This document shows positions 37,994-53,781 of a stretch of DNA of 54,174 bases, piece after piece. Under the pieces are notes generated by a model. That model saw nothing but the letters and a program-made list of their open reading frames with translations. It was not told the origin of the DNA and made no database searches. Both the position numbers and the translations under genes were made by a program. The DNA comes from Myxococcota bacterium. GTDB lineage: Bacteria > Myxococcota > XYA12-FULL-58-9 > JABJBS01. The stretch is taken from contig JAYZAY010000071.1 of the NCBI GenBank assembly GCA_036339465.1, forward strand, positions 1-54,174, written 5' to 3'. Each line of letters begins with the position of its first letter. Within the stretch, counting starts at the first letter, position 1.

Positions 37994-39088
37994 TCAGGGC
38001 GTGGGAGTTTTGAGTCTTGAGACAGAGAGGGACTTTGGAATTTGATTATCGTGACGCGTCAACAACTTACTTAGTTTTTTGGCTGTCCAGGGAATCCAGA
38101 GAGTTCCCTTTGATGCAAAGGCACTTAGAATAAATAGGTTTCGCATTTCGGGCACCGGCCCCACAACCGGAGACCGGTCGGGAGGTGCGGTCAAACGAGA
38201 TCCTCTCCATAGCTTGAGTGGATTGCTCTCTTTGATTTGAGCAATCCAGTGTGCCGCCTTCTCCAATAAAATGTTGGCAATCTCATCTTCGGATCCTGGT
38301 TCCTGTTCAGGATGGTGATAATAGGTTGATCCGAGAATCCAGGTATTCCAAGGGGTGGGGACCATGTGAACGCCGTTTCCACTCAGACCAACTTTTTTGG
38401 GAAGAGGAGATTTCCAATCTATTTCAAGGACGTGTCCCGCAATATTGCAGAAGGGGAGATTCGGCATAAGTTTTGAAATGGCACTTCCGGTGCATAGAAC
38501 CAGTTTATCGCTTTGTTGGGGGCCGCGCCCGGTTTCCATTCGCCACCCGTTGCCCTTTGCTTTAATGCTCGTTACTGGCGTTTCGATGATGGTCACCCCC
38601 TGTTTGACCAAGTACTGTTTGAGCCTCTGGCAGAGCTGATGGAGAGCGATGGATAAGCAAGATGGAAATGTAATGATTTCATCTGTGTTGTGGAGCCAAT
38701 CGGTGGTCTCTAAAAATATTTTTTGTTTCGATGCTTGGACGTGTTTCTCTAGGAGGTCACGGTTGTTTTCAAAACTTCGCTGGATCCGCTCTCCATAGCT
38801 ATTTGAATGAGAAAAAGGCCTCCATAATTCGATTTCAAGGATAGAATCTGCGGATGATTGTTTTTGAAACCAGTCAAGAGAATAGCTGAAAGCTTCAAGT
38901 GTGAATGGTTTTGGAGCGACCGATGGTCCGGGGGTAGGGTTTAATAACGCACATGGGAGCTGTGAGGCGGTGGGGTGCTGATGGCTGTGAAAGAGTTGGA
39001 TCTCTTTGCCTTCTACCCCGTCATTGATGAGGTGTGTGGCCAAAGAAAGACCACTTAATCCGGCTCCGATAATCGTGATTGTCGTCAT
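37994..39088 (-). CDS. FAD-dependent oxidoreductase, DAO family, like the C-terminal domain of MnmC
   Basis: IIGAGLSG, GSTY, R...PDRSPVVG and SKG. ATGA-coupled to the upstream MnmC-type methyltransferase. Confidence 0.78.
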   Translation of the reverse strand: MTTITIIGAGLSGLSLATHLINDGVEGKEIQLFHSHQHPTASQLPCALLNPTPGPSVAPKPFTLEAFSYSLDWFQKQSSADSILEIELWRPFSHSNSYGERIQRSFENNRDLLEKHVQASKQKIFLETTDWLHNTDEIITFPSCLSIALHQLCQRLKQYLVKQGVTIIETPVTSIKAKGNGWRMETGRGPQQSDKLVLCTGSAISKLMPNLPFCNIAGHVLEIDWKSPLPKKVGLSGNGVHMVPTPWNTWILGSTYYHHPEQEPGSEDEIANILLEKAAHWIAQIKESNPLKLWRGSRLTAPPDRSPVVGPVPEMRNLFILSAFASKGTLWIPWTAKKLSKLLTRHDNQIPKSLSVSRLKTPTP

Positions 39089-39888
39089 GGCGTGGGGGGC
39101 TTGGGGTTAGAGGGAGCCAAGTCTACTCCGATGGGCTGTTTTGATTTGGGCAATAGAGAGAATCCTTGGAGAGCATTTGCATTTGGCGATGCAATGGTCA
39201 TTTCTCGCTTTCCGGCACCGCCAGGGGCTTTGGCTGTCCAAAAACCGGCTCTGGCTAAGCTTTTTCTGATTTCGGAGGATGCACTGTAGGTCACCAAACG
39301 CGCGGTCGATCGGAGCCATGGTGCAATATGTTTGAAGGCTAGGTCAGTCCATGCGTCGGGATTTTCTTTTGGTCCGAATGGGTCGTGATAATGTGTGTCA
39401 AAAGAGGATGCGGGAAAGTCACAATCAAAGAGATCCCATGGAAGAGTTCTAAGATAAATATTCTTGAACTTGATTTGCAAAGGTTTTCTGGAGTTTGCAG
39501 CCTGGCTATTTCCATCCATGAGCATGCTGAGTAATGGAATTTGGAAATCGTGATTTCGGTGAACTTCTTCAAGGCAGGTTTGTGGCAGAGGGGACCGCTC
39601 AATCGCAGTATAATAAAGTGCGAATTGGTTAGAACTTTGAAGGAAGTACTCGGCGGTGTGAAGGAAATTAAGGCCCGTACCCAATCCCAGTTCCAAGACT
39701 GAAACATCTCTTTGGATATCGGCTATACCACTCGCCCTTAAGAAAACATGTTTGGATTCGGTGTGGGCACCATAGACAGAGCGGTAGGTGGTACTACTGC
39801 CCTTAAAACGGAGCGTATGGGCGCCATCCTTTGTTTCGATAACTTCAAGCATTTCTTTTTTCGCTTTTTTTGGTGGGGTAGTCGCCAT
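39085..39888 (-). CDS. mnmD: tRNA mnm5s2U34 methyltransferase (MnmC N-terminal domain/MnmD)
   Basis: T.DG..TL, Y.S..GA..ES.HVF, ELGLGTGLNF, D.F.P..NP..WT, TYS and GKREM. Start is 39888 or 39852. Confidence 0.88.
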   Translation of the reverse strand: MATTPPKKAKKEMLEVIETKDGAHTLRFKGSSTTYRSVYGAHTESKHVFLRASGIADIQRDVSVLELGLGTGLNFLHTAEYFLQSSNQFALYYTAIERSPLPQTCLEEVHRNHDFQIPLLSMLMDGNSQAANSRKPLQIKFKNIYLRTLPWDLFDCDFPASSFDTHYHDPFGPKENPDAWTDLAFKHIAPWLRSTARLVTYSASSEIRKSLARAGFWTAKAPGGAGKREMTIASPNANALQGFSLLPKSKQPIGVDLAPSNPKPPTP

Positions 39889-40045
39889 TTGAGGGGGCCT
39901 ACCATGGGGTATTTTTGTGAACAAGTGAAAATCTTGAGCTAGAATTTTTTGCGTTGGCGCAATCTAAATTTGCCGTTGACCGGTGGCATGGTCTGGGTTA
40001 GCTCACCTTTCTTGTGGGGTTGTTCTAGTAGGTGAGGGCTTATTC

Positions 40046-41737
40046 ATGGTTTGTTTTAATTCGGAACGTATGGAACGTGCGCCTGCTAGGGCGATGTTAA
40101 AGGCCACAGGTCTTACTGATGAGGATTTAGAGAAACCCTTGATCGCGGTAATGAATACGTGGTCTGAAGTAACACCCTGCAACTTTCATCTGGATAAACT
40201 TGGAGCAGAAGTAAAGGCCGGAATTCGTGAGGCCGGTGGTACTCCAATTGAGATGAATTCCATTGTTGTTTCCGACGGGATCAGCATGGGGACGCCGGGC
40301 ATGAAGATGTCCTTGATTTCTCGAGAAGTCATTGCTGATTCCATTGAAGTGGCGGTTAGGGCACATAATTTTGATGCCGTGGTCGTCTTATGTGGATGCG
40401 ACAAAACGATTCCCGCTGCGGCTATGGGCGTGGCTCGGTTGGACCTTGCGTCGGTCATCCTTTACGGTGGTTCCATTATGCCGGGAAATTTCAAAGGCAG
40501 TAATGTGACGATTCAGGAGGTTTTTGAAGCGGTTGGGGCCTGCGCAGCGGGACGTATGGAGCTTGAAGAGTTGCGTATTCTCGAGGATGAGGCTTGTCCC
40601 GGGGCGGGTGCTTGCGGCGGGCAATTCACAGCAAACACGATGTCTTGTGCCCTGAGTGTTTTGGGGCTTTCACCCATGGGGTTTAATGATGTTCCCGCTG
40701 AAGATCCCCGTAAAAAAAAGGTGGCTTTCGAGTCTGGCAAGTTGGTGATGGATGTTTTGAAAGCCAACCGGAAACCGGGGGACTATATCACCCGGGATAG
40801 TTTGCGTAACGCCGTCGCCATAACCGCGGCCACGGCGGGTTCAACCAATTCGGTACTTCACCTCTTGGCCATCGCCAGAGAATTCGGGGTTGCTTTTGGC
40901 TTGGAGGATATCGATGAGATTATGGCGGCCACACCGGTGGTGGCGGATTTAAAGCCCACGGGGCGCTTTATGGCCCCAGATTTTGATAAGGCCGGTGGTG
41001 TGCCTTATTTAGTTCGGGAAATGATTGCGAGAAACTATTTAAAGGATGCCATGACAGTCACTGGGCGAATGTTGAGTGAGGAATGTGCGGATGCCGTTTC
41101 CCATGACACCCAAGGTGTCTTGAAATCTTTCGATGAGCCCTTAAAGCCGCGGGGGGGACTTGCTATTTTGAGGGGAAGTTTGGCTCCTGATGGCTGTGTT
41201 ATTAAGGTTTCGGGTCAGGCGCAGATGAATTTTACAGGACCGGCTCGGGTTTTTGAATGCGAGGAAGACTGTTTTGAAGCTTTGCAAGAGGGCAAGCTAA
41301 ATGAAGGCGATGTGATAGTGATTCGCAATGAGGGTCCCAAGGGTGGGCCCGGCATGCGAGAGATGTTGGCGGTGACGGCGGCTTTAGCGGGACGGGGGAT
41401 TCTGGATAAGGTGGCCTTAATTACCGACGGCCGATTTAGTGGTGCAAGTCATGGTTTTGTTATTGGGCATGTGGCGCCTGAAGCTTTGGTGGGTGGTCCC
41501 ATTGGGATGGTTCAGAATGGGGATATTATTCACATTGATGTTGATACACGCCAAATTGAGATTCAGGTGGATCTCGAAATGCGAAAGGTCGCAGATAAGC
41601 CCGCGTCGCAAGAGGATCTTCCTCGGACTGCGGTAAAATATGCATGTTTGGTCTCATCTGCTTCTCTCGGGGCGGTTACAGCCTTTCCTGAATATTCAAA
41701 TGGATTTATGCCCAGTGAAGATTGCCAATCGGTTTAA
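40046..41737 (+). CDS. ilvD: Dihydroxy-acid dehydratase
   Basis: [52 protein letters not shown] and ITDGRFSG. Confidence 0.97.
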
Positions 41738-41953: not shown

Positions 41954-42109
41954 ATGAAGAGCCTAGGGCAACCATTAAGAGCAAGTACAAACGCAGCGGA
42001 TGTTTTATCCTTCGTCGCTCGGTTGGTATCTTCACGCATTATCGAGGCCCTCCTCGTACTTGTCATTCTTCTCATTGTACTTGGCATCGGCCTGCGAGGT
42101 GGTGGTTAG
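41954..42109 (+). CDS. ilv/leu attenuator leader peptide (51 aa)
   Basis: Translates as MKSLGQPLRASTNAADVLSFVARLVSSRIIEALLVLVILLIVLGIGLRGGG*, with 11 consecutive Leu/Val/Ile codons at 42050-42082. Absent from the ORF track. Confidence 0.85.
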   Translation: MKSLGQPLRASTNAADVLSFVARLVSSRIIEALLVLVILLIVLGIGLRGGG

Positions 42110-42141
42110 GACTTGTTCACAACCTCCACCTCGCAGGCCGA
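42087..42141 (+). promoter_or_regulatory. Antiterminator hairpin of the attenuator
   Basis: TCGGCCTGCGAGGTGG (42087-42102) is the exact reverse complement of CCACCTCGCAGGCCGA (42126-42141), extended by GGTT/AACC. It shares 42137-42141 with the terminator stem. Confidence 0.88.
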
Positions 42142-42175
42142 CCCGCTCGAACATAAGCAGGTCGGCTTTTTTTTT
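42137..42175 (+). terminator. Intrinsic terminator (attenuator) upstream of ilvC
   Basis: GCCGACC-c-GCT ... AGC-a-GGTCGGC stem followed by nine T's (42167-42175). Confidence 0.9.
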
Positions 42176-42196: not shown

Positions 42197-43192
42197 ATGA
42201 AATTGGCAGAAACAACAGAAGCAAGCAGCAAGATTTTAGAGCAAGTGCCCATTGCGGTTATTGGTTATGGGGCCCAGGGTAGGGCTCAGGCACAGTGTTT
42301 TAAGGATTCCGGCTTGGATGTTACCGTCGGTGTTCGACCGGATGGCGCTTCTTGGCAATTGGCCCAAGAAGTTGGCATGAAGGTGGCAAGCATTGCCGAG
42401 GCATCAAAAAAGGCTCAGCTTATTCATATTCTTATCCCTGACGAGGTCCAGCGTACTGTCTACCAGAAGGAGATTGCTCGCCATGTAACCTCCGGTAAGA
42501 CCGTTTCATTCTCCCATGGTTTCAATATCCTCTATGGTTACGTTGCGCCGCCGGATGATGTCGATTGTATTTTAGTAGCCCCAAAGGCCCCAGGCACCGA
42601 AGAGAGAAAGGCCTATCTAGAAGGCAGCGGCGTACCTGGTTTGATCGCTATTCAGAACGATGCATCGGGAGATGCGCGCAACAAGGCATTGGCATTGGCC
42701 GATGCTCTGGGATGTACCCGTGCGGGTGTTTTGGAATGTTCCTTCGAAGACGAAACATTTGAGGACCTTTTTGGGGAACAAACCGTTCTTTGTGGGGGGG
42801 TAGCAGAACTCATAAAGGCAGGTTTTGAGACGTTGGTTGATGCTGGTTACCCACCCGAAATGGCTTATTTCGAGTGTCTCCACGAACTGAAACTTATCGT
42901 CGATCTCATTTATGAAGGGGGCCTAGAGCGTATGTGGGACGTGGTTTCGAATACGGCCGAATACGGTGGGAGAATGGTGGGACCGAAAATTATAACGCCG
43001 GCAACTCGAGACGCGATGAAGACGGCTTTGGGCAGAGTTCAAAGTGGTGAATTCGCCAAAGAATGGATGCAAGAATATGAGTCGGGAATGAAGAACTTAG
43101 ACAAGCTTCGCGCAGAGGAACGTCAGCATCCCATTGAAGTTGTGGGCCGCAAAGTACGTAGCCTTTTTAAGAGAGTAGAAGCGAACCACTAA
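42197..43192 (+). CDS. ilvC: Ketol-acid reductoisomerase
   Basis: IAVIGYGAQG.AQA, PDE, FSHGF, VAPKAPG, DLFGEQ.VLCGG, AYFECLHELKLIVDL and SNTAEYG. Confidence 0.97.
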   Translation: MKLAETTEASSKILEQVPIAVIGYGAQGRAQAQCFKDSGLDVTVGVRPDGASWQLAQEVGMKVASIAEASKKAQLIHILIPDEVQRTVYQKEIARHVTSGKTVSFSHGFNILYGYVAPPDDVDCILVAPKAPGTEERKAYLEGSGVPGLIAIQNDASGDARNKALALADALGCTRAGVLECSFEDETFEDLFGEQTVLCGGVAELIKAGFETLVDAGYPPEMAYFECLHELKLIVDLIYEGGLERMWDVVSNTAEYGGRMVGPKIITPATRDAMKTALGRVQSGEFAKEWMQEYESGMKNLDKLRAEERQHPIEVVGRKVRSLFKRVEANH

Positions 43193-43210: not shown

Positions 43211-44821
43211 ATGAATCAGATCTTTATCTACGATACAACACTTCGAGATGGAACTCAGGGGGAGGATTTCCAACTCTCTGTCCCAGAGAAACTGGCCATC
43301 ACGGAGATCCTAGATGATTTTGGCTTTCATTATATTGAAGGAGGATGGCCGGGGTCCAATCCTCGCGACGAGGAATATTTTAAGAAAGCTCGCCAGTTGG
43401 TATTAAAAAATACGAGACTGGCTGCTTTTGGCTCAACACGTAGGGCAGGGGTCAAGGCATCGGAGGATGCCAATCTGCTAAAATTGGTATCTGCCAAGGT
43501 CCCCGTAGCAACTATTTTTGGAAAATCATCTCGCTATCAGGCTGAAACGATTTTGAAAGTTAGCGCGGAACAAAATCTCGAAATGGTTTTCGATAGCGTT
43601 AACTACCTTAAGGCCCATTTTGATGAGGTGATGTTTGACGCAGAGCACTTTTTTGATGGTTACGTCAGTTCGCCAGACTATGCCATGAAGGTGTTGGGTG
43701 CGGCGTTAGAGGCTGGGGCGGATTTTGTGGTCCTATGTGATACCAATGGTGGGAGCCTACCCCATCAAGTGTCGGCTGCGGTTGAAGCTGTGAAGAGAAA
43801 ATTTGATTGCTCCATTGGTATTCACGCCCATGATGATTCTGGTCTAGCCGTAGCGAACTCTTTGGAGGCGGTACGTATGGGGGCATCATTGGTGCAGGGA
43901 ACGGTCAACGGGCACGGTGAACGCTGCGGTAATGCGAATCTGATTACGGTAATTCCCAATTTACAGCTCCAGATGAAAAAGAACTGTCTCGGACCGGGCC
44001 GCCTACAAGGGTTGACCCGGTTGTCTCGAACCCTTGATGAGATGACCAATTATGTTTCGAATCCGCAGCAGCCCTTTGTTGGGCGGCGCTCTTTTTCCCA
44101 TAAGGGAGGAGTCCATATCAATGCGGTGATGAAAGACACAGGGTCCTATGAGCACATTCGGCCGGAAGAAGTCGGTAACCGACGTCGAATTTTAGCTTCG
44201 GATCTATCTGGATATTCAGCCATCGTCTTAAAGGCCCGTGAATTTGGTTTAGATCTGGATTCTCAGAATCCTCTGACTCGAAAGGTTTTAGAGAGGGTTA
44301 AGGATTTAGAGTATGAGGGATACCAATTCGAAGGAGCGGAAGCTTCGTTAATGCTTTTGATGCACGAGGCTGCGGGCACTCGAAAGGAGTTTTTCAGGTT
44401 TCATTCCGCGACGGTGACCACCGACCTGACGGCCGAACCGAAGACTGTTGGCGAGAGTTCGAAGGCTGTTGTTGATCTTGAAGTCGAGGGCCGTCGGGTT
44501 CAGAGCCATCAAACGGGAAATGGTCCAGTACATGCTCTCGCGAATGCATTTCGAGATGTTCTTGAACTTGCCTATCCCGAACTTCGTGAAGTGCGGTTGG
44601 TAGATTATAAGGTTCGCATTTTGAGTAGTGGCAACGGTTTTGCAGCGACCGTACGCGTTTTGGTCCAGGCAACCGATGGACGGCAAACGTGGGGAACGGT
44701 GGGCGTAAGTACAAATATTGTGGAAGCCAGTCGTAAGGCTGTGACTGATGCGCTGGAAACAAAGCTTTTTCGTGAACGTAATGCTGATGGAAGTAGCGCT
44801 TCTTTAAAAAAGGTAGGGTAA
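43211..44821 (+). CDS. cimA: (R)-citramalate synthase
   Basis: YDTTLRDGTQGE, YIEGGWPGSNP, AFGSTRR, FDAEHFFDG, LCDTNGG, HKGG.H and GYQFEGAEAS. This is the bacterial CimA subfamily, distinct from the adjacent LeuA. Confidence 0.9.
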   Translation: MNQIFIYDTTLRDGTQGEDFQLSVPEKLAITEILDDFGFHYIEGGWPGSNPRDEEYFKKARQLVLKNTRLAAFGSTRRAGVKASEDANLLKLVSAKVPVATIFGKSSRYQAETILKVSAEQNLEMVFDSVNYLKAHFDEVMFDAEHFFDGYVSSPDYAMKVLGAALEAGADFVVLCDTNGGSLPHQVSAAVEAVKRKFDCSIGIHAHDDSGLAVANSLEAVRMGASLVQGTVNGHGERCGNANLITVIPNLQLQMKKNCLGPGRLQGLTRLSRTLDEMTNYVSNPQQPFVGRRSFSHKGGVHINAVMKDTGSYEHIRPEEVGNRRRILASDLSGYSAIVLKAREFGLDLDSQNPLTRKVLERVKDLEYEGYQFEGAEASLMLLMHEAAGTRKEFFRFHSATVTTDLTAEPKTVGESSKAVVDLEVEGRRVQSHQTGNGPVHALANAFRDVLELAYPELREVRLVDYKVRILSSGNGFAATVRVLVQATDGRQTWGTVGVSTNIVEASRKAVTDALETKLFRERNADGSSASLKKVG

Positions 44822-44825
44822 GGAT

Positions 44826-46394
44826 ATGCCGAAGGATTTTGTGCAGATTTTTGACACGACCCTGAGGGATGGCGAACAGTCTCCTGGGGCGACGATGACT
44901 CAACAAGAGAAGATCCGTATTGCACGGGCCCTCGATGAGATGAGTGTGGATGTATTGGAGGCGGGGTTTCCGGCCGCGAGCCAGGGAGAAGTCGAATCGG
45001 TTCAGGCGGTTTCGAAGGCCGTGGAAAATGCGACGGTGGCCGCGCTATGTCGAACGCGAGAAAATGATATCGCAAAAGCCATGGAAGCTCTTTGCTTTGC
45101 CAAGCATAAAAGGCTGCATGTCTTCATTGCCACCAGCGACATCCATTTAAAATATAAACTAAAAATGAGTCGGGCGGAGGTTTTGAAGCAAATTGCTTTT
45201 GGTGTGGGAGCTTGTGCTTCCTTGGTGAGCGACGTGGAGTTTTCAGCCGAAGATGCGACACGCACGGATATTGGCTTCTTAAAGGAGGCAATGGCTTGTG
45301 CATTGGAACATGGTGCAAGAGTCCTAAATGTACCTGATACCGTGGGCTACACCACTCCTAATGAATTTTTCAAGATGATCGAAGCTGTTGTTGAATTGGC
45401 AAATCCTTATAATGCGATTGTTTCTGCGCACTGCCATAATGATTTAGGCTTGGCGGTTGCGAACTCACTGGCCGCCGTTCAAGCGGGTGCTCGCCAGGTT
45501 GAGGGTTGTATTAACGGTTTAGGGGAAAGAGCGGGCAATGCGGCCATCGAAGAAGTGGTGATGGCTCTCCGAACGCGCCAGGGTTTGTATCACTGTGATA
45601 CTAGGATCGAAACGGAAAGAATATTTTCTATGAGTCGCCTGGTGAGTGAGATCACCGGTTTTACTGTTCAGCCGAATAAGGCAATTGTGGGCAAGAATGC
45701 TTTCGCCCATGAGTCAGGTATTCATCAGCACGGTGTTCTTGAAGAGAGAGAAACCTATGAAATAATTGATCCTAAAGATGTGGGTATTCCGGAATCAAAT
45801 ATTGTTTTAGGCAAGCACTCGGGACGACACGCATTACGCGACCGACTAAGCCAGCTTGGATACGAAGTCGACGATCTCGAATTGAAACGGGTTTTTCTGG
45901 AATTCAAGGACCTAGCCGATCGTAAGAAAAATATTTACGACGAAGACCTCCATGTTTTGGCCAATCGATTGGGTTATGAGACGGAGCAGAGCTTCAATTT
46001 GGTAAATGTCAATTTCACCGGTTCCAAAGACGCAGAGGGAACTGCGCATCTAGAATTGATGACTGTGGATGGCACGGTTGTGAAAGAGGCCACTGGGGAT
46101 GGTCCGGTTCATGCGGTCTTCGAAGCTCTCAAGGCCTGTACGGGATTCTCAGATATTCGGTTGGTTGATTATCAGGTGTCGGCTGTTTCCAGTGGTTCGG
46201 ACGCCCAAGGTCGAGCAATTGCACGAATTGAGACTGAATATGGTCTGGTTCAAGGGCACGGAACTCATACCGATGTGGTCGTCGCCAGCGCCCTGGCTTT
46301 TGTGGATGCAGCGAATGCGCTTTGTGTGAAGGTCATAAATGAGGAGTTAATCGAGAAAAACAACAGAAATAAGACGGAGGCGAAGGCATCATGA
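44826..46394 (+). CDS. leuA: 2-isopropylmalate synthase
   Basis: FDTTLRDGEQSPG, EFSAEDA.R, PDTVGY, HCHNDLGLAVAN, GERAGN, FAHESGIHQ.G and a C-terminal regulatory domain. Confidence 0.97.
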   Translation: MPKDFVQIFDTTLRDGEQSPGATMTQQEKIRIARALDEMSVDVLEAGFPAASQGEVESVQAVSKAVENATVAALCRTRENDIAKAMEALCFAKHKRLHVFIATSDIHLKYKLKMSRAEVLKQIAFGVGACASLVSDVEFSAEDATRTDIGFLKEAMACALEHGARVLNVPDTVGYTTPNEFFKMIEAVVELANPYNAIVSAHCHNDLGLAVANSLAAVQAGARQVEGCINGLGERAGNAAIEEVVMALRTRQGLYHCDTRIETERIFSMSRLVSEITGFTVQPNKAIVGKNAFAHESGIHQHGVLEERETYEIIDPKDVGIPESNIVLGKHSGRHALRDRLSQLGYEVDDLELKRVFLEFKDLADRKKNIYDEDLHVLANRLGYETEQSFNLVNVNFTGSKDAEGTAHLELMTVDGTVVKEATGDGPVHAVFEALKACTGFSDIRLVDYQVSAVSSGSDAQGRAIARIETEYGLVQGHGTHTDVVVASALAFVDAANALCVKVINEELIEKNNRNKTEAKAS

Positions 46395-47470
46395 ACCAGA
46401 TCTTTAATCTATTATTGTTGCCGGGTGATGGAATCGGTCCCGAGGTGATGGAAGAGGCGAAAAAGCTCCTCGATTTGGTCGCTTCCAAATCTGATTATGT
46501 CTTTGAATATGCTTGTGCTGATTTTGGTGGGGCGAGTATTGATGCCCACGCAACTCCTCTCACAGATGAGGTCTTAAATCTCGCAAAATCCGCCGACGCT
46601 GTCTTGTTGGGGGCAGTGGGCGGTTCTAAGTGGGATGATCTAAAAGGCGAAGAGCGTCCGGAATCGGGTTTGTTGAAACTCCGATCCGCATTGGAAGTCT
46701 ACGCGAATATTCGCCCGGCAAGATTTTACAGTGGGCTTGGGGATGGTTCGCCACTCCGAGATTCTGTTTCCGAAGGGGCCAACTTGGTTATTGTTCGTGA
46801 ATTAACCGGCGGCATCTATTTTGGCACACCACGGGGGGTTTCCCAAAATGGAACCAGCGGCTGGAATACCATGACCTATCATGACTATGAGGTGAGACGC
46901 ATTGCGAAAGTTGCATTTGAGGTGGCCCAAAACCGCAAAGGAGAACTCACGAGCGTGGATAAAGCCAACGTTCTTGAAGTTTCACGGCTTTGGCGAGACG
47001 AGGTTGAAAATCTGCACGGCTCTTATGGCGATGTTAAGTTGAATCATCTCTATGTTGATAATTGTGCGATGCAATTGGTTCGTGCTCCTAAATCTTTCGA
47101 TGTTATTGTTACGTCGAATCTGTTTGGTGATATCCTGTCTGACTTAGCAGGTGCTATGACGGGGAGTCTTGGAATGTTGCCGTCGGCGTCGGTGGGAGAA
47201 GGAAACGCCTTATACGAGCCTGTTCACGGAAGTGCACCAGACATTGCTGGCCAAGGAATGGCCAACCCCATTGGGATGCTCTTAAGCGTCGCGATGTTTT
47301 TTGAGCATACGGTGAAGGACGTGACGATTGCACGGAAGATAGAAGAAGCCGTAGAGGTTGCCTTGGGGAAAGGCAATCGCACTCGAGATATCGCAGTGGG
47401 TTTTGAAAATGAAACGCCAGTTGGTACCGATGAAATGGGTGCTGCTATAAGACAAGCATATTTGGGCTAA
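46391..47470 (+). CDS. leuB: 3-isopropylmalate dehydrogenase
   Basis: LPGDGIGPEV, LLGAVGG, RELTGGIYFG, VDKANVL, N.FGDILSD and EPVHGSAPDIAG. Confidence 0.97.
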   Translation: MNQIFNLLLLPGDGIGPEVMEEAKKLLDLVASKSDYVFEYACADFGGASIDAHATPLTDEVLNLAKSADAVLLGAVGGSKWDDLKGEERPESGLLKLRSALEVYANIRPARFYSGLGDGSPLRDSVSEGANLVIVRELTGGIYFGTPRGVSQNGTSGWNTMTYHDYEVRRIAKVAFEVAQNRKGELTSVDKANVLEVSRLWRDEVENLHGSYGDVKLNHLYVDNCAMQLVRAPKSFDVIVTSNLFGDILSDLAGAMTGSLGMLPSASVGEGNALYEPVHGSAPDIAGQGMANPIGMLLSVAMFFEHTVKDVTIARKIEEAVEVALGKGNRTRDIAVGFENETPVGTDEMGAAIRQAYLG

Positions 47471-47485
47471 GCGAGAGAGGTTGAT

Positions 47486-49306
47486 ATGTCGTCGTTGGCA
47501 CGTAAGCGTGAAGGGTCGGGGGTCGCGTTGCTTAAGAAATCGAAGGTTTTGAGGCGGGATGCTATCAGTCCCTACTTTGAGGTTGCAAAGCTTGAAGAAG
47601 GTGAGACTCTTTTGATTTCGAAGGTGCACGGCATTGAACTTCTTCGTCTGGTGCTAACCAACAAAGGAACTGCCTTTAGTGAGGCGGAGCGGGTGGACCT
47701 CGGGTTGGATGGTTTATTGCCACCCAAAGTTTGTCAGATAGAGGAGCAGCTAGACAGAGCCTACGAAAATTTTCTTAGGCAAGCCAATCCCATTGATAAA
47801 TATCAATACTTGAGAGGGTTACAAGAACGACAAGAGGTGTTGTTTTATGCCTTGGTGTGTCGACATCTCAAGGAAACGCTTCCTATTATCTATACGCCCA
47901 CGGTTGGGGAGGCGGTCAGCCGTTTTTCGGCCTTATTTGAGACGCCGCGAGGGTTGACGGTCACCCCCGAAAACATCGACCGAATTGATACTATTTTGGA
48001 TAACTATCCGCTTCAGGAACCTGAGCTTATGGTGGTGACAGATTCTTCAGCCATTTTGGGAATCGGCGATCAAGGTGTGGGTGGGTTGGCTATATCCATC
48101 GGTAAATTGGCTCTTTATACCGCTGCGGGTCGAATGAGCCCCTTCAGGACGATTCCCGTTTGCCTCGATTGTGGCACCAACCAAGAAGGTCTGCGCAGTG
48201 ATTGCCAATATATTGGGCGTCAGGAGGACCGACTCGGCGGCGATGGTTATTTTGATTTTGTCGACCGATTCGTGGCCGCCGTTGGTAGGAAATGGCCCAA
48301 GGTGGTGATCCAATGGGAAGACTTATCTAAAGATACCGCATTCGACGTTTTGTCGCGTTATCAAGACTCTATCAGTTCATTCAACGACGATATTCAAGGC
48401 ACCGGTGCTGTGGCCCTTGCGGGTCTTTTAAGGGCGGTGAAGATTGCGCATTTAGATTTTTGTAAGCAGAAGATTGCGATTGTAGGGGCGGGAGCCGGTG
48501 GTTTGGGTGTGGCCTTAGCCATTCGCGGTGAGTTGCAGCGAGAAGGATTGTCGGCAGAGGATATTTCGGAGTGTCTGTTTGTCTTTGATTCGGGAGGACT
48601 GATGCATGAGGGTAGAGGCCTTGTTGGTATCAAGAAGCAATTTGAGACGCCTATGCATTGTGTCAGTGATACGGTGAAAGGAAATAGAGTATCCCTCGAT
48701 GCGGAATTCATTGGTGTACAAGGGATAACCACCCTGATTGGGTTGAGTGGTCAACCTGGTTTCTTTTCTGAGTCAATGGTGAGGGGGATGGGTGAGAATA
48801 CTTCTCGTCCCATCATTTTTCCGTTGTCCAATCCCACTCGGTTATCAGAAGGGGTTCCCGAGGTCTTGATGGAATGGACCAGAGGCAAGGCCATTGTGGC
48901 CACGGGGAGTCCGTTTCCCGACGTACCACTGAAAAGTGGGACTGTGATGCGTGTGGGCCAAGGGAACAATGCTTTTGTGTTTCCAGGATTGGGGGTTGGT
49001 GCAGTCTTGACTGGCGCGAGCCGAATCACCGAGGGCATGGTGGCAACGGCGGCGCATGCCTTGGCGAATTACATGACCGCACGGTTTGGGGATGATGATA
49101 CGGTGTATCCGGATGTAGCGGAATTGCCAATGGTGAGTAGAGTGGTTGCGCGAGAAGTGGCGCTCAAGGCCATTGAAGAGGGTGTAGGCACTAAGTGCTT
49201 CAAGGACGCCGTAGCTGTCGAAGATGCATTAGACGATTTTTTATGGAAACCCAATTACTTTAAAATTGTGTCGGAAAAATTATTTGAGAGGGAATACGAG
49301 TGGTGA
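47486..49306 (+). CDS. maeA: Malic enzyme, large (MaeA/SfcA-type) oxaloacetate-decarboxylating malate dehydrogenase
   Basis: [68 protein letters not shown] and GQGNN..VFPG. Confidence 0.9.
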
Positions 49307-49311
49307 AAAGA

Positions 49312-50724
49312 ATGGGTAAGACGCTCTATCAAAAGGTGTGGGAAAACCATATAGTAAAAACTTTGCAAGATGGGCGAGATCAGGTCTTTATCGGTTTACA
49401 TCTGGTGCATGAGGTTACAAGTCCCCAGGCTTTTGGAATGTTGAAGGAGAAGGGACTGAGGGTTAAGTATCCCGGTCGTACCTTTGCGACCGTGGACCAT
49501 ATTATTCCCACAGATGATCCCGTGCGGCCATTCCAAGATGCGAAGGCTGAGGAAATGGTGGCGGCTCTATATGAGAATACACAAGACCACGATATCAAGT
49601 TCTTTGACCCAGCGTCCAACAAGCAGGGTATTATCCATGTGATTGGCCCAGAGTTGGGTCTCACACAGCCGGGAATGACTATTTGCTGTGGGGATTCTCA
49701 TACTTCCACCCATGGTGCTTTTGGGGCTCTCGCTTTCGGAATAGGCACGTCGCAGGTACGTGATGTGCTTGCCACTCAAACCTTGGCCATAAAACGCCTG
49801 AAGGTTCGTCGCATTGAGATTGAGGGTGTCTTGGGCGATGGGGTCTACGCCAAAGATGTCATTTTGCATGTGATTAGGCAATTGGGTGTACACGGTGGTG
49901 TTGGATTTGCCTATGAATTTGGTGGTAGCGCCATCGACTCCATGGAAATGGAAGCGCGGATGACCCTTTGTAATATGGCCATCGAGGGTGGTGCTCGCAT
50001 CGGCTATGTAAACCCCGATCAGAAGACGTTTGAGTATTTAAAGGGCCGTGCATATGCACCGGATGAAAAATGGGAGGAAGCGAAGGCCTATTGGACCGGG
50101 ATTCAAAGTGACCCAGATGCGGACTACGATGACCTTGTGCGCTTTGAGGCAGAAGTTATCAAGCCTACGTTGACGTGGGGGGTTAATCCTGCCCAAGCGA
50201 TTGAAATCGGTGAGGCTTTGCCGGTTATGGAATCCGAGTCTGCTAAGGATGCTGCCAAGTATATGCACCTAGGGGATGTAGACTCTATGCTGGGAGTTCC
50301 GGTGGATGTGGCGTTCATTGGTAGTTGTACCAACGGGCGCTTGAGTGACCTCCGTGAAGTGGCCCGAGTGGTTCAAGGGCATAAGGTTCATGAACGGGTT
50401 CGGGCCTTGATTGTGCCGGGGTCTATGAAGGTAGCATTAGAGGCGGAAGCTGAGGGTATTTCTAAAGTCTTACGAAATGCGGGATTTGAGGTTCGGCAAC
50501 CCGGTTGTTCAATGTGTTTGGCTATGAACCCCGATAAGTTAGTCGGGGATGAGCTTTGTGTTTCGTCGAGCAACCGGAATTTTAAAGGTCGGCAAGGGAG
50601 TAGCTCAGGTCGTACTGTTTTGATGAGTCCGGTTATGGTGGCAGCGGCAGCGGTAACTGGTGCCATTGCAGATCCCAGAGAAGCATTTGGTAAAGGGTTG
50701 AGGTGCAGTTATGGCAATGAGTGA
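49312..50724 (+). CDS. leuC: 3-isopropylmalate dehydratase large subunit
   Basis: [49 protein letters not shown] and NRNF.GRQG. An alternative GTG start at 49303 overlaps the malic enzyme stop. Confidence 0.97.
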
Positions 50725-51313
50725 GACCAAAAGGGTAGGGCGGGGCGTATTTATTCCAGGGAATAATTTGGACACCGACCAGATCACACCCGCCAGATAC
50801 TTAAAGTGTGTTACGTTCGACGAACTTTCAGGGACGCTTTTTTATGATGAGCGTTTTGACTCCGATGGCAACGAAAAGGAGCATCCCATCAACGATCCGC
50901 GATTCAATGGGGCGGGTGTTCTCTTGGTGGGTAAGAATTTCGGTTGTGGCTCATCTCGAGAACATGCACCCCAGGCGATCAAACGTTGTGGCTTTAAGGC
51001 CATCGTGGGCGAAAGTTTTGCTGAGATTTTTCAGGGGAATTGTACGGCACTTGGTGTGCTTTGTGTCACTGCTTCTCAGCCAACCATCGAGAAACTGGCA
51101 AAAGGTATTGAGATGGCTCCGTCTGCGGAAATCGAGATTGATATTGAGACCCAAAGGGTTTCTTCTTTGGGGGCTGAGTATAAATGTAGGATTGATAGCT
51201 CGGTGCGGGATGCGTTTTTGCGGGGCGCATGGGATCCTTTGGATACTCTTCTCTCAGCTGGGGCAGAAATCGATGCAACCTTTAAACAATTACCATATTC
51301 GGGGTGGGTGTGA
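50711..51313 (+). CDS. leuD: 3-isopropylmalate dehydratase small subunit
   Basis: [22 protein letters not shown] and SFAEIF.GN. Confidence 0.96.
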
Positions 51314-53166
51314 TGTCGAGTTTTTCTAAACCCAATTTACGTATCGTGCGGTTAGCAGACGTCGCTGAAAATAAATCTATGGAGGCTACATCGCTTAAGT
51401 ATCAAACGCCAGCGGCGGGCACATTAACCGAATCCGATGCGACGGGTTTTTGCCCAGAGGAAGCAGTGAGTGGGGCTGAAGCTTTGGTTGAATGTTTGGC
51501 GCAGCATGGTGTTCCATGTGTGTTTGGATATCCAGGCGGGGCCAATATTCCCATTTTCGATGCTATTTTGGATTCGCCCATTGAATTGGTTCTTTGTCGC
51601 CATGAGCAGGGTGGAACCCACATGGCGGATGGCTACGCAAGAACAACCGGAAAGGCTGGTGTGGTCTTGGTTACTTCGGGACCAGGTGCGACCAATACGG
51701 TGACCGGCATTCTTACGGCGCAGATGGATTCTGTTCCTATGGTTGTGATCACCGGTCAGACGGTCACGGGAAACTTGGGACTTGATGCTTTTCAGGAAGC
51801 CGACGTGATGGGGATTACGATGCCCACGGTTAAACACAGCTACCTCGTTAAACGTGTCGAAGACCTGACGCGCATTGTAAAGGAAGCGTTTTATGTTGCC
51901 GAATCGGGGCGTCCGGGTGTGGTCTTGATCGACATTCCTAAGGATGTCTCAGCCAAGAAATATGTGCCAGATTACAATCCTATTTTTGAATTACCAGGGT
52001 ATCATGTGCAAACGGATTTCGAAGAGGCGAAGGTGCAGGAGGTCGCCGAGGCTTTAAGAAAAGCTAAGAAACCCCTGATTTTGGCGGGTCATGGTGTGCT
52101 CATCTCCGGGGGCTCGAAAGCTCTTGCGGAGTTTGTGGAGGGCTATCAGCTTCCCATTACCAACACGCTGCTTGGGAAGGGAAGTTTTCCGGAAACCCAT
52201 GCGTTAAGCGTGGGCATGTTGGGAATGCACGGCACGGCTTATGCCAATAAGGCGGTGGTGGATTGTGACCTGATTATGGCGGTTGGTTCAAGATGGGACG
52301 ACCGAATCGTGGGTAAGGTGTCTGAATTTTGCCCAAATGCACTGAAGATCCATGTGGATATCGATCCTTCTGAATTTGGTAAGATGATTCAGCCAGATAT
52401 TTCGGTGGTGGGTGACGCGCGGCGGGTTTTAGAGCGATTGGTGGAGATTAATACGCCGGGTGATACCAGCGCTTGGCGGGCAAAGGTCGGGGCTTGGAAA
52501 AAGGATTTTCCTTTGACCTATGCAAAGGATGAGGTGCTTCGGGCTCAAGGGGTGATTGAGGAGCTTTACAAACAAACCGGCGGGCGGGCAATCGTGTCAA
52601 CGGACGTGGGTCAGCACCAAATGTGGGCAGCGCAGTTTTTTCGATGTGATCTTCCGGATTCTTGGATCTCTTCAGGGGGCGCGGGCACCATGGGGATTGG
52701 GTTTCCTGCTGCCATTGGTGCACAAATGGCGAAACCGGATGAACTTGTGGTGGCCATTGTGGGGGATGGTGGTTTTCAGATGACCCTCTGTGAATTGGCG
52801 ACGGCGGTGATCCAAAAACTACCGATAAAAGTTTTGATTATCGACAACAAATATCTCGGTATGGTTCGGCAGTGGCAGCATTTGTTTTACGACAATCGCT
52901 TGTCTGGTGTGGATCTGCATGGAAATCCCGACTTTGTCGCATTGGCTGCGGCCTATGGCTGCAAGGGTGTGAAGATTTCTTCGGTCGGTGAACTCAAAGC
53001 CAAGATGGCCGAGGCTCTAGCCTACAACGATGGGCCTTGTATCATTCACGCCGAGGTTTGTTCAGGAGACAACGTTTATCCGATGATACCAGCCGGAGCA
53101 TCTTTGGATGAAATGCTTTTGGGGCCTCCGGTTGCGAAATTAGAGAAACCAGAAGGGAGTACGTGA
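51313..53166 (+). CDS. ilvB: Acetolactate synthase large subunit
   Basis: FGYPGGA, RHEQG..HMADGYAR, TSGPGATN, DAFQE.D, TDVGQHQMW and GDGGFQM (TPP motif). TGATG coupling to leuD. Confidence 0.96.
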   Translation: MSSFSKPNLRIVRLADVAENKSMEATSLKYQTPAAGTLTESDATGFCPEEAVSGAEALVECLAQHGVPCVFGYPGGANIPIFDAILDSPIELVLCRHEQGGTHMADGYARTTGKAGVVLVTSGPGATNTVTGILTAQMDSVPMVVITGQTVTGNLGLDAFQEADVMGITMPTVKHSYLVKRVEDLTRIVKEAFYVAESGRPGVVLIDIPKDVSAKKYVPDYNPIFELPGYHVQTDFEEAKVQEVAEALRKAKKPLILAGHGVLISGGSKALAEFVEGYQLPITNTLLGKGSFPETHALSVGMLGMHGTAYANKAVVDCDLIMAVGSRWDDRIVGKVSEFCPNALKIHVDIDPSEFGKMIQPDISVVGDARRVLERLVEINTPGDTSAWRAKVGAWKKDFPLTYAKDEVLRAQGVIEELYKQTGGRAIVSTDVGQHQMWAAQFFRCDLPDSWISSGGAGTMGIGFPAAIGAQMAKPDELVVAIVGDGGFQMTLCELATAVIQKLPIKVLIIDNKYLGMVRQWQHLFYDNRLSGVDLHGNPDFVALAAAYGCKGVKISSVGELKAKMAEALAYNDGPCIIHAEVCSGDNVYPMIPAGASLDEMLLGPPVAKLEKPEGST

Positions 53167-53696
53167 TGTCTGTGACAGCCCTAGCGAGAGCACACACCAT
53201 TGGTCTTTTATTGAGTAATAAAGCGGGTGTTTTAAATCGAGTGACGTTGGTATTTAGTCGTCGTGGTTGGAATATCGATAGTTTGAGCGTCTCCCCGCGC
53301 AAAGACGAACGGATTTCTCATTGTACCATTGTTGCCCGCGGGGATTCGGCGACGCTCTTTGTTATTATGGGGCAGTTGCGCAAACTTGTGGATGTCATTG
53401 AGGCCGAAGAATATTTCGATGTGATGATGAATGTTCGAGAATTTGCATTGGTTCACTTGAGTGTCGAAGACGAGTCCTGGCAACCATTTCTCGCGCAATT
53501 TGATATTGAATGGACGGAATTGGAGCGCGTTGAACAAGCGGTGACGGTGGAACTCCGCGGAGGTTACCGTGCGGTGGATGAAACCTGCCGAGGGTTGGCC
53601 GATAGATTCCACGTTGTGAATCTCGTGCGCAGCGGTAAAATGCAGATAGAGCGAGAGGGGTATGGATTGGCTCAGAGCAAAGCGACTGGTGTCTAG
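53166..53696 (+). CDS. ilvN: Acetolactate synthase small (regulatory) subunit
   Basis: ACT domain N.AGVL.RV..VFSRRG.NIDSL.V and QLRKLVDV. C-terminal RE.AL and VRSG. TGATG coupling to ilvB. Confidence 0.9.
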   Translation: MSVTALARAHTIGLLLSNKAGVLNRVTLVFSRRGWNIDSLSVSPRKDERISHCTIVARGDSATLFVIMGQLRKLVDVIEAEEYFDVMMNVREFALVHLSVEDESWQPFLAQFDIEWTELERVEQAVTVELRGGYRAVDETCRGLADRFHVVNLVRSGKMQIEREGYGLAQSKATGV

Positions 53697-53781
53697 TGCC
53701 CGATGGGGCAATTTTGGTGGCAGTGACGTTTCGTTTGCTTGGCTTCTGCCGTTCGTTTTAAACACTAAACACTAAATTAGC

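Follow-up and report, generated by a model that had tools for sequence, protein, structure and literature searches.

Several described systems resemble parts of the locus reported here. The best solved match to its malic enzyme, which we call mae, is the NAD-dependent MaeA/SfcA of E. coli (PDB 6AGS; E 3e-131, residues 48–593). The two domains and the catalytic residues are alike, but the E. coli enzyme has Gly-Glu-Arg at the carboxylate-binding loop and Arg/Phe/Gln at positions 346/347/362, whereas mae has Ser-Ser-Ala and Ser/Gly/Lys. MEZ (PDB 6URF; bioRxiv 10.1101/2020.07.07.192161) is, like mae, a large-subunit bacterial enzyme that lacks Arg165; it has AEA at that site and is active on malate with either cofactor, NAD or NADP. 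It differs from mae in belonging to another branch, in preferring NAD and in carrying Arg/Pro/Gln at 346/347/362, and a link to leu genes is unreported in the text covered. The cytosolic NADP-malic enzymes of human and pigeon (1GQ2; PMC3183043) share with mae Ser346 and Lys362 at the 2′-phosphate site, and Lys/Arg347 recurs in most of the leu-linked copies described below; unlike mae, which has Gly347, these enzymes are eukaryotic and keep Arg165. Oxaloacetate decarboxylases and malolactic enzymes (PMC8100219; NCBIfam model NF041582) illustrate how the family can lose or change its dehydrogenase step. The most likely working analogues are yeast Mae1 and the malate shunt of C. thermocellum (PMC3866936, PMC9888227), where malic enzyme provides pyruvate and NADPH for products of the valine pathway. 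In those cases the tie is metabolic or engineered, whereas here mae sits inside a biosynthetic operon, behind a putative leader attenuator.

The window, that is, the whole 54,174-nt stretch of DNA analysed, belongs to the 4.17-Mb genome (92.8% complete; G000) of a marine bacterium. Sources assign close homologues of mae to Myxococcota. To our knowledge, branched-chain operons normally contain pathway enzymes only, and E. coli maeA lies outside any ilv or leu operon. Here, on the + strand, ilvD is followed after a gap of 459 nt by ilvC-cimA-leuA-leuB-mae-leuC-leuD-ilvB-ilvN. Each pathway gene scores over its NCBIfam cut-off, and all intergenic gaps from ilvC through ilvN are 18 nt or less. The features are as follows:

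41954..42109, + strand: leader peptide of 51 aa with a Leu/Val/Ile run at codons 33–47; similar leaders precede ilvC in G001 and G003
42088..42140, + strand: upstream hairpin (−41.3 kcal/mol) overlapping the 5′ arm of the terminator; predicted antiterminator
42135..42175, + strand: predicted terminator-like hairpin with U tract (−19.5 kcal/mol)
42197..43192, + strand: ilvC, ketol-acid reductoisomerase, the NAD(P)H-consuming step (NCBIfam)
43211..44821, + strand: cimA, citramalate synthase, using pyruvate and acetyl-CoA (TIGR00977, 660.3 against a cut-off of 450)
44826..46394, + strand: leuA, 2-isopropylmalate synthase (NCBIfam)
46391..47470, + strand: leuB, 3-isopropylmalate dehydrogenase, the neighbour invariably upstream of mae (TIGR00169, 460.3 against 353.2)
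47475..47480, + strand: GAGAGG in the 15-nt leuB-mae gap, 5 nt before the mae ATG; putative ribosome-binding site
47486..49306, + strand: mae, large-subunit (MaeA/SfcA-type) malic enzyme of 606 aa, D-SSA subfamily (NF010052)
49300..50724, + strand: leuC, isopropylmalate isomerase large subunit (NF004016, 682.4 against 510)
50711..51313, + strand: leuD, isopropylmalate isomerase small subunit (NCBIfam)
51304..53166, + strand: ilvB, acetolactate synthase large subunit, a pyruvate consumer (NCBIfam)
53163..53696, + strand: ilvN, acetolactate synthase small subunit (NCBIfam)

The region before ilvC has the appearance of an attenuator for branched-chain amino acid (BCAA) synthesis. Codons 33–47 of the leader are mostly Leu/Val/Ile, and the two overlapping hairpins with their U tract are unusually stable (z = −6.15; none of 200 shuffles was equally stable). 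A Leu/Val/Ile leader, competing hairpins and a U-tailed terminator thus all stand before the first gene, as in attenuated BCAA operons. Because the gaps are so short, we infer that the run from ilvC to ilvN, mae included, is a single transcript under this attenuator. Scans for a promoter or terminator inside the operon near mae gave counts at chance level (20 versus 13.6 ± 3.7; 16 versus 16.5), and a short terminator-like hairpin occurs at 53697–53710, right after ilvN. Regarding ilvC, most of the IlvC cofactor loops contain Arg and/or Ser, which could point to the NADPH type, a reading on which nothing here depends.

The first-pass annotation of this DNA placed the start of mae 15 nt beyond the leuB stop, behind a GAGAGG ribosome-binding site, and had its stop overlapping or abutting the start of leuC. 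Both observations are correct: leuB ends at 47470, and leuC begins either with GTG at 49300, giving a 7-nt overlap with the mae stop, or with ATG at 49312, 5 nt past it. Independent contigs cover part of this region: one (run X4, 49168–49458) runs from mae into leuC, and a second (run X1) extends 34 nt beyond the leuB stop, yet only 19 nt into mae. The annotation had considered that the linkage might be unique to this assembly, or a misassembly. Instead it is found at 39 further loci, which, together with the independent contigs, rule out misassembly. Recent insertion of mae is ruled out as well, since its composition is like that of its neighbours (GC and GC3 of 0.50 and 0.52, against 0.49–0.51 and 0.46–0.52 for the operon) and its divergence rate is like that of leuB and leuD (50–54% for mae versus 54–60% for leuB and 46–54% for leuD).

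Judged by its residues, mae is an intact large-subunit malic enzyme. The whole protein scores 643.6 bits on NF010052 (oxaloacetate-decarboxylating malate dehydrogenase; cut-off, 326), with domains PF00390 at residues 113–293 and PF03949 at residues 303–562. There is no phosphotransacetylase domain, so the enzyme is not MaeB-type, and no match to the Iso_dh-type family of LeuB and D-malate/tartrate dehydrogenase. Alignment to 6AGS and others indicates that Y136, K207, E278, D279, D301/D302, N449, N494/N495 and the glycine-rich loop (GAGAGG in the protein) are all intact. These residues presumably include the catalytic Tyr and Lys, the metal ligands Glu, Asp and Asp, and the substrate Asn. A189 stands where Arg165 of the GER motif is usual. 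Arg165 is also absent from Myxococcota NEG/SEG copies, and we treated it as typical of the large-subunit family rather than defining. That mae might be dead through loss of Arg165 is ruled out by 6URF, which is active without it. The subfamily to which mae belongs forms a single branch (SH-aLRT 99), with the motif D-[SAN]SA, no Arg165, and Ser-Ala in 84 of 84 members at the carboxylate-binding loop. We found no assayed member; the characterised methanotroph enzyme of PMC6860931 was excluded, as it has GER.

Cofactor preference can be predicted from three positions. Residues S369, G370 and K383 of mae correspond to positions 346, 347 and 362, as mapped via 1GQ2 and 1LLQ alignments. In human ME1, a eukaryotic enzyme, these positions set NADP use; substitution K347Y raises the Km for NADP only ~5-fold, whereas K362Q raises it 144-fold (PMC3183043). 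Two of the three NADP determinants, Ser346 and Lys362, are kept in mae, and the third, Lys347, is replaced by Gly. Among full linked copies, Ser346 and Lys362 are each present in 39 of 39 and Lys/Arg347 in 30 of 39. The catalytic residues (Tyr, Lys, Glu, Asp, Asp, Asn) do not vary, either there or across the 30 unlinked rows of the subfamily. Linked and unlinked copies cannot be told apart at any active-site column, and the unlinked Myxococcota copies also have the NADP determinants, which hence cannot be put down to adaptation to the operon. We infer that mae is an L-malate enzyme and predict that it likely prefers NADP, although we do not file it under EC 1.1.1.40. Databases label this subfamily NAD-dependent, yet it carries NADP determinants.

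That the enzyme is instead of malolactic type, yielding L-lactate rather than pyruvate, is barely credible. The second-best NCBIfam model is indeed that of malolactic enzyme, and loss of Arg165 is, we assume, common to the malolactic group. But mae reaches 465.9 bits on that model, far under the cut-off of 850, and keeps its NADP determinants; moreover, lactate would presumably be of no use to a BCAA operon.

A survey of gene neighbourhoods, which the annotation had proposed, shows that the link recurs. A mae gene lies directly 3′ of leuB at 40 loci (35 genomes and five metagenome contigs, some maybe from the same species), and every one of these copies is of the D-[SAN]SA subfamily. Within the family of the host, the window-type order is seen in three of five other genomes; the G005 sequence stops where leuB ends, and the malic enzyme of G002 is distant and unlinked, with no LeuB or LeuC match of the kind sought in that genome. 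Among 147 non-redundant malic-enzyme loci drawn from genome and metagenome searches, leuB is in the flank, directly upstream, at 14 of 31 loci of the D-[SAN]SA subfamily, versus none of 116 other loci, of which 109 have 400 nt or more of upstream sequence. In a related group, a sample of 401 genomes centred on G401 gave subfamily matches (E ≤ 1e-145) in 45 genomes, directly behind leuB in 30; about half of these 30 are one shallow cluster, such that the counts overstate independence. Where a true LeuB is also present, the two are linked in 30 of 36 genomes and apart in 6. Nine of the 15 genomes with an unlinked subfamily enzyme have no LeuB over the cut-off, and LeuC is also absent in all five of those tested. 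A LeuB-type match occurs in 140 of the 401 genomes and mae lies behind leuB in only 31, so the BCAA pathway runs without the link. The 40 leuB loci chosen as unlinked were assigned with only operon proteins and MaeB as queries. The range given here is a lower bound, as a pattern scan of genome contigs gave one locus and a metagenome scan covered 3 of 64 parts. Of 14 junctions examined, 5 have a mae start codon that overlaps the leuB stop; in G405 the two genes are 223 nt apart.

Five gene orders contain the junction:

Order 1: cimA-leuA-leuB-mae-leuCD(-ilvBN)
Order 2: ilvBN-ilvC-leuA-leuCD-leuB-mae
Order 3: ilvC-leuA-leuCD-cimA-leuB-mae
Order 4: ilvD-ilvBN-ilvC-leuB-mae-leuA-leuCD-cimA (L128, 31% GC)
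Order 5: cimA-leuA-leuB-mae, with leuCD divergent

The gene before leuB varies (leuA, leuD, cimA or ilvC), as does the gene after mae (leuC, leuA or none), while the junction itself is constant. Where both genes are in view, leuB-mae and the subunit pair leuC-leuD are the only junctions present in all five orders. The conserved unit is therefore leuB-mae, with or without adjacent leuC or cimA; the annotation's picture, in which mae lies between leuB and leuC within a citramalate-pathway operon, is apt for the window but not for the unit in general. The phylogenetic check that the annotation suggested, whether leu-linked copies form a clade, came out against one. A single linked clade is rejected, with six label changes and an AU p of 1e-5 (51 of 83 rows, 32 being dropped as near-copies, partial or long-branch; labels unrooted). 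The leuB and mae trees share groups, for example G000/G001/G003/G413/G416/L128. The simplest history would be an old link that was lost several times and moved between lineages along with leuB.

This history raises the prospect that mae is a passenger, a housekeeping malic enzyme that became coupled behind leuB once, the junction then being inherited or moved as a block with no special benefit to the pathway. Consistent with this idea, a PF00390 search of 33 linked draft genomes gave no malic enzyme besides the linked copy in 14 of them, and the subfamily enzyme persists in the nine genomes without LeuB. It is also unlinked beside an intact leu operon in seven genomes (G403, G407, G408, G364, G528, G794, G517). 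In the first three of these the operon is as in linked relatives and mae has moved elsewhere; in G517, leuB is joined directly to leuC. The similarity of linked and unlinked active sites, and the groups shared by the leuB and mae trees, point the same way. On the other hand, the junction has outlived rearrangements on both of its sides, at ~50% protein identity and across 31–73% GC, and an amino-acid attenuator would be expected to silence a housekeeping enzyme in rich conditions. On balance we consider the passenger explanation unlikely.

The explanation we favour, and think somewhat more probable than not, is that mae is an L-malate enzyme, likely NADP-preferring, that supplies pyruvate and NADPH to the BCAA pathway. 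It would convert L-malate to pyruvate, CO2 and, probably, NADPH. Upon shortage of Leu, Val or Ile, the leader attenuator would open and mae would be made along with the pathway, providing both carbon and reducing power for BCAA synthesis. Flux would run from acetyl-CoA through the glyoxylate shunt and TCA cycle to malate, and thence to pyruvate. On this explanation mae is a general-purpose malic enzyme under amino-acid control, not one rebuilt for the pathway. Bacteria related to Myxococcota are believed to grow on protein and lipid, not sugar. By the citramalate route, valine, leucine and isoleucine each consume two pyruvate and two NADPH, of which one is used at IlvC and the other in amination via glutamate dehydrogenase. 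The arithmetic fits, because two turnovers of an NADP enzyme give two pyruvate and two NADPH. For valine, the pyruvate and NADPH count is given in PMC9888227. In C. thermocellum, removal of malE cut valine secretion by 81% (PMC9888227); in yeast, raised mitochondrial Mae1 gave 1.6-fold more isobutanol, and deletion of MAE1 had no effect on it (PMC3866936). A sister branch, which lacks Ser346 and mostly Lys362, is found behind malate synthase G at four of five loci, a neighbour that fits an L-malate substrate.

The host genome bears on this explanation in both directions. It encodes two malic enzymes, the second being a 754-aa MaeB with a phosphotransacetylase domain (contig C67), with isocitrate lyase, malate synthase and a RamB-like regulator as neighbours; a glyoxylate shunt (aceA/aceB) is thus present. 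A second malic enzyme, about which the annotation had asked, therefore exists in the host; in 14 linked genomes the linked copy is the sole one found. Searches of the host genome, at 92.8% completeness, did not recover the IlvA regulatory domain, G6PD or PntB; among linked relatives tested, PntB is present in four of four and G6PD in two of four. Against a feeder role, the host can make pyruvate by way of ATP-PEPCK and pyruvate kinase, both encoded, and it has MaeB. The annotation's first proposal, a dedicated malate-to-pyruvate feeder yielding NAD(P)H, thus survives in part. Feeding as such fits the link, the active site, the NADP determinants, the glyoxylate shunt alongside a separate MaeB, and the failure to find G6PD and PntB. 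"Dedicated" is too strong, given the host's other route to pyruvate, the genomes with no other malic enzyme found, and the lack of a linked clade. The six of 36 genomes in which leuB and mae are apart, the PntB of all four relatives tested, and the many leuB genomes that lack the link also speak against a dedicated role. A feeder role also leaves unexplained the constant leuB neighbour and the half-enzyme described below.

The annotation's second, more speculative proposal was that mae has shifted to an alkylmalate. We considered it in a broader form, in which mae would oxidise an alkylmalate such as 3-methylmalate, or would decarboxylate a 3-alkyl-oxaloacetate released by LeuB. LeuB is always adjacent, and Ser-Ser-Ala replaces Gly-Glu-Arg at the carboxylate-binding loop. 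There is precedent for change within the family, in that the malic enzyme of T. acidophilum acts on isocitrate (PMC11134350) and some malic enzymes became oxaloacetate decarboxylases (PMC8100219). The annotation had itself raised L-malate stereospecificity as an objection, and rightly so, for malic enzymes use (S)-hydroxy acids and LeuB-type enzymes (R) (PMC11134350); an oxo substrate would, however, sidestep this difficulty. Other evidence is harder to reconcile with a shifted substrate. Three linked genomes (G401, G402, G405) have no cimA over the cut-off, and G405 has IlvA. The subfamily persists in the genomes without LeuB, and without LeuC in all five tested. Active sites are identical in linked and unlinked copies, and the active-site motifs of the window's LeuB are intact and resemble those of unlinked LeuBs. 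A shifted substrate is, in our estimation, very unlikely.

Two genomes, G736 and G817, have in the leuB slot a shortened gene. Their order is leuA-leuB-X-leuC-leuD-ilvB-ilvN, where X encodes 320–322 aa with PF03949 (Malic_M) only, has a 3-nt gap or an overlap with leuB, and overlaps leuC by 4 nt. The half that carries the catalytic Tyr, Lys, Glu and Asp is missing, and NDD, SNPT and QGNN are lost; lacking metal ligands, the half-enzyme is unlike both the decarboxylase and the malolactic groups. Its reading frames appear to be maintained: frames as open arose in 0 and 33 of 5000 base shuffles, and identity at codon positions 1/2/3 is 0.52/0.56/0.35, with protein identity of 36%. Five further half-proteins of 321–323 aa share 47–85% identity, genomic context being known for G736 and G817 only. 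A structural model (pLDDT 86.8) has the fold of the C-terminal part of malic enzymes (TM 0.71). Two full malic enzymes are encoded elsewhere in G736, and none was seen in G817 (3.4 Mb). Searches of 51 and 121 genomes gave no more half-genes with context. A profile search with the half family added a single fragment, P0249, the remaining matches being ordinary enzymes or fragments (domains were scanned in 14 of 150 matches), and the ESM Atlas gave generic Malic_M clusters only. From its sequence and predicted fold, we regard the half-enzyme as a maintained pseudoenzyme in the leuB slot, predicted to be inactive.

The half-enzyme possibly supports a non-catalytic role for the full protein. In such a scenario mae would moonlight on the enzymes of the leucine branch. 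The likeliest ways would be for it to bind LeuB, or for its C-terminal domain, the half that is kept where catalysis is dispensable, to sense a nucleotide or anionic ligand. In favour of this are the leuB-mae junction, as constant across the five orders as that of the subunit pair leuC-leuD, and the Malic_M-only gene itself, with its open frames, folded model and five more homologues. But context is known for just two half-genes, and in G517, which is related to G736, the slot holds neither the full nor the half form. Among the 130 columns that six or more of the seven half-proteins conserve, one follows linked over unlinked full copies and more than 40 are new to the half family, including Arg, Trp, Cys and Glu residues around the old active site; these family-specific columns suggest a function gained after truncation. 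Nor was any fusion to LeuB seen among the best 120 homologues (556–626 aa) or nine long proteins scanned. Moonlighting by the full protein seems to us improbable. A bolder combination, which we offer as a doubtful but slightly less remote conjecture, is that leuB and the subfamily form a physical or regulatory pair, in which the enzyme would both feed and tune the leucine branch and the shrunken pseudoenzyme would be a ligand-sensing regulator of BCAA synthesis.

A full-text literature search, covering few subscription papers, turned up no title or abstract describing a malic enzyme in an ilv or leu operon, or such a half-enzyme. The arrangement is real and conserved, and apparently undescribed, although its parts are known. 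If the feeder explanation holds, the basic chemistry is ordinary; what stands out is that a central-metabolism enzyme, predicted to make both substrates of the pathway, is built into a BCAA operon and likely shares its attenuator. It would be a natural counterpart of the engineered malic-enzyme boosts to valine and isobutanol flux. Alongside it is a small family of putative pseudoenzymes whose sole known location is behind leuB, and, should the pairing with leuB prove true, these proteins would represent an undescribed regulator derived from malic enzyme.

The slot between leuB and leuC, which holds the malic enzyme gene mae in the window, is occupied in both genomes of known context (G736 and G817) by a gene for half of such an enzyme:

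L310:483-1451, malic-enzyme C-terminal half gene, G736
L352:1411-2373, malic-enzyme C-terminal half gene, G817

Further members are proteins P0238, P0239 and P0241-P0243 and the fragment P0249. These half-enzymes (320-323 aa) are conserved, correspond to the C-terminal half of malic enzyme without its catalytic residues, and share conserved Arg, Trp, Cys and Glu residues of their own. They are a candidate pseudoenzyme family.

In G000, the genome of the window, the second malic enzyme, MaeB, is part of a glyoxylate-shunt cluster on contig C67:

L047:3134-10045, isocitrate lyase, malate synthase A, RamB-like XRE regulator and MaeB

One branch of the mae subfamily (loci L112, L113, L118 and L121) is encoded directly 3′ of malate synthase G, with isocitrate lyase downstream in L112. 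This branch has lost the NADP determinants; thus, cofactor motif and neighboring gene shift in step.

At L115, a subfamily member not linked to leuB lies directly 3′ of the gene for glucose-6-phosphate dehydrogenase, another NADPH source. In protein P0265 (726 aa), a complete malic enzyme is followed at the C terminus by a GGDEF domain, and P0344 (739 aa) carries a similar extension without domain assignment. These extensions could be genuine fusions or read-through.

Three further features concern G000:

contig C62:78746-79708 (L073), second LeuB-like Iso_dh gene
window 39983-41737, + strand, ilvD
window 37994-39924, - strand, tRNA-modifying MnmC, encoded by two overlapping genes

The LeuB-like protein is 36% identical to the operon LeuB and belongs to a separate branch, with members in G011 and G019. 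Because ilvD lies 5′ of the predicted attenuator, it would escape attenuator control; ilvD and ilvC are divergent in G003 and G817. Within the MnmC pair, the MnmC2 methyltransferase scores above the cut-off and the MnmC1-like oxidoreductase under it.

Finally, contig L128 (31% GC) contains a complete ilv/leu/cimA operon, whose leuB and mae cluster with those of G000's family (49% GC) and G413/G416 (71% GC). This grouping likely reflects operon transfer.
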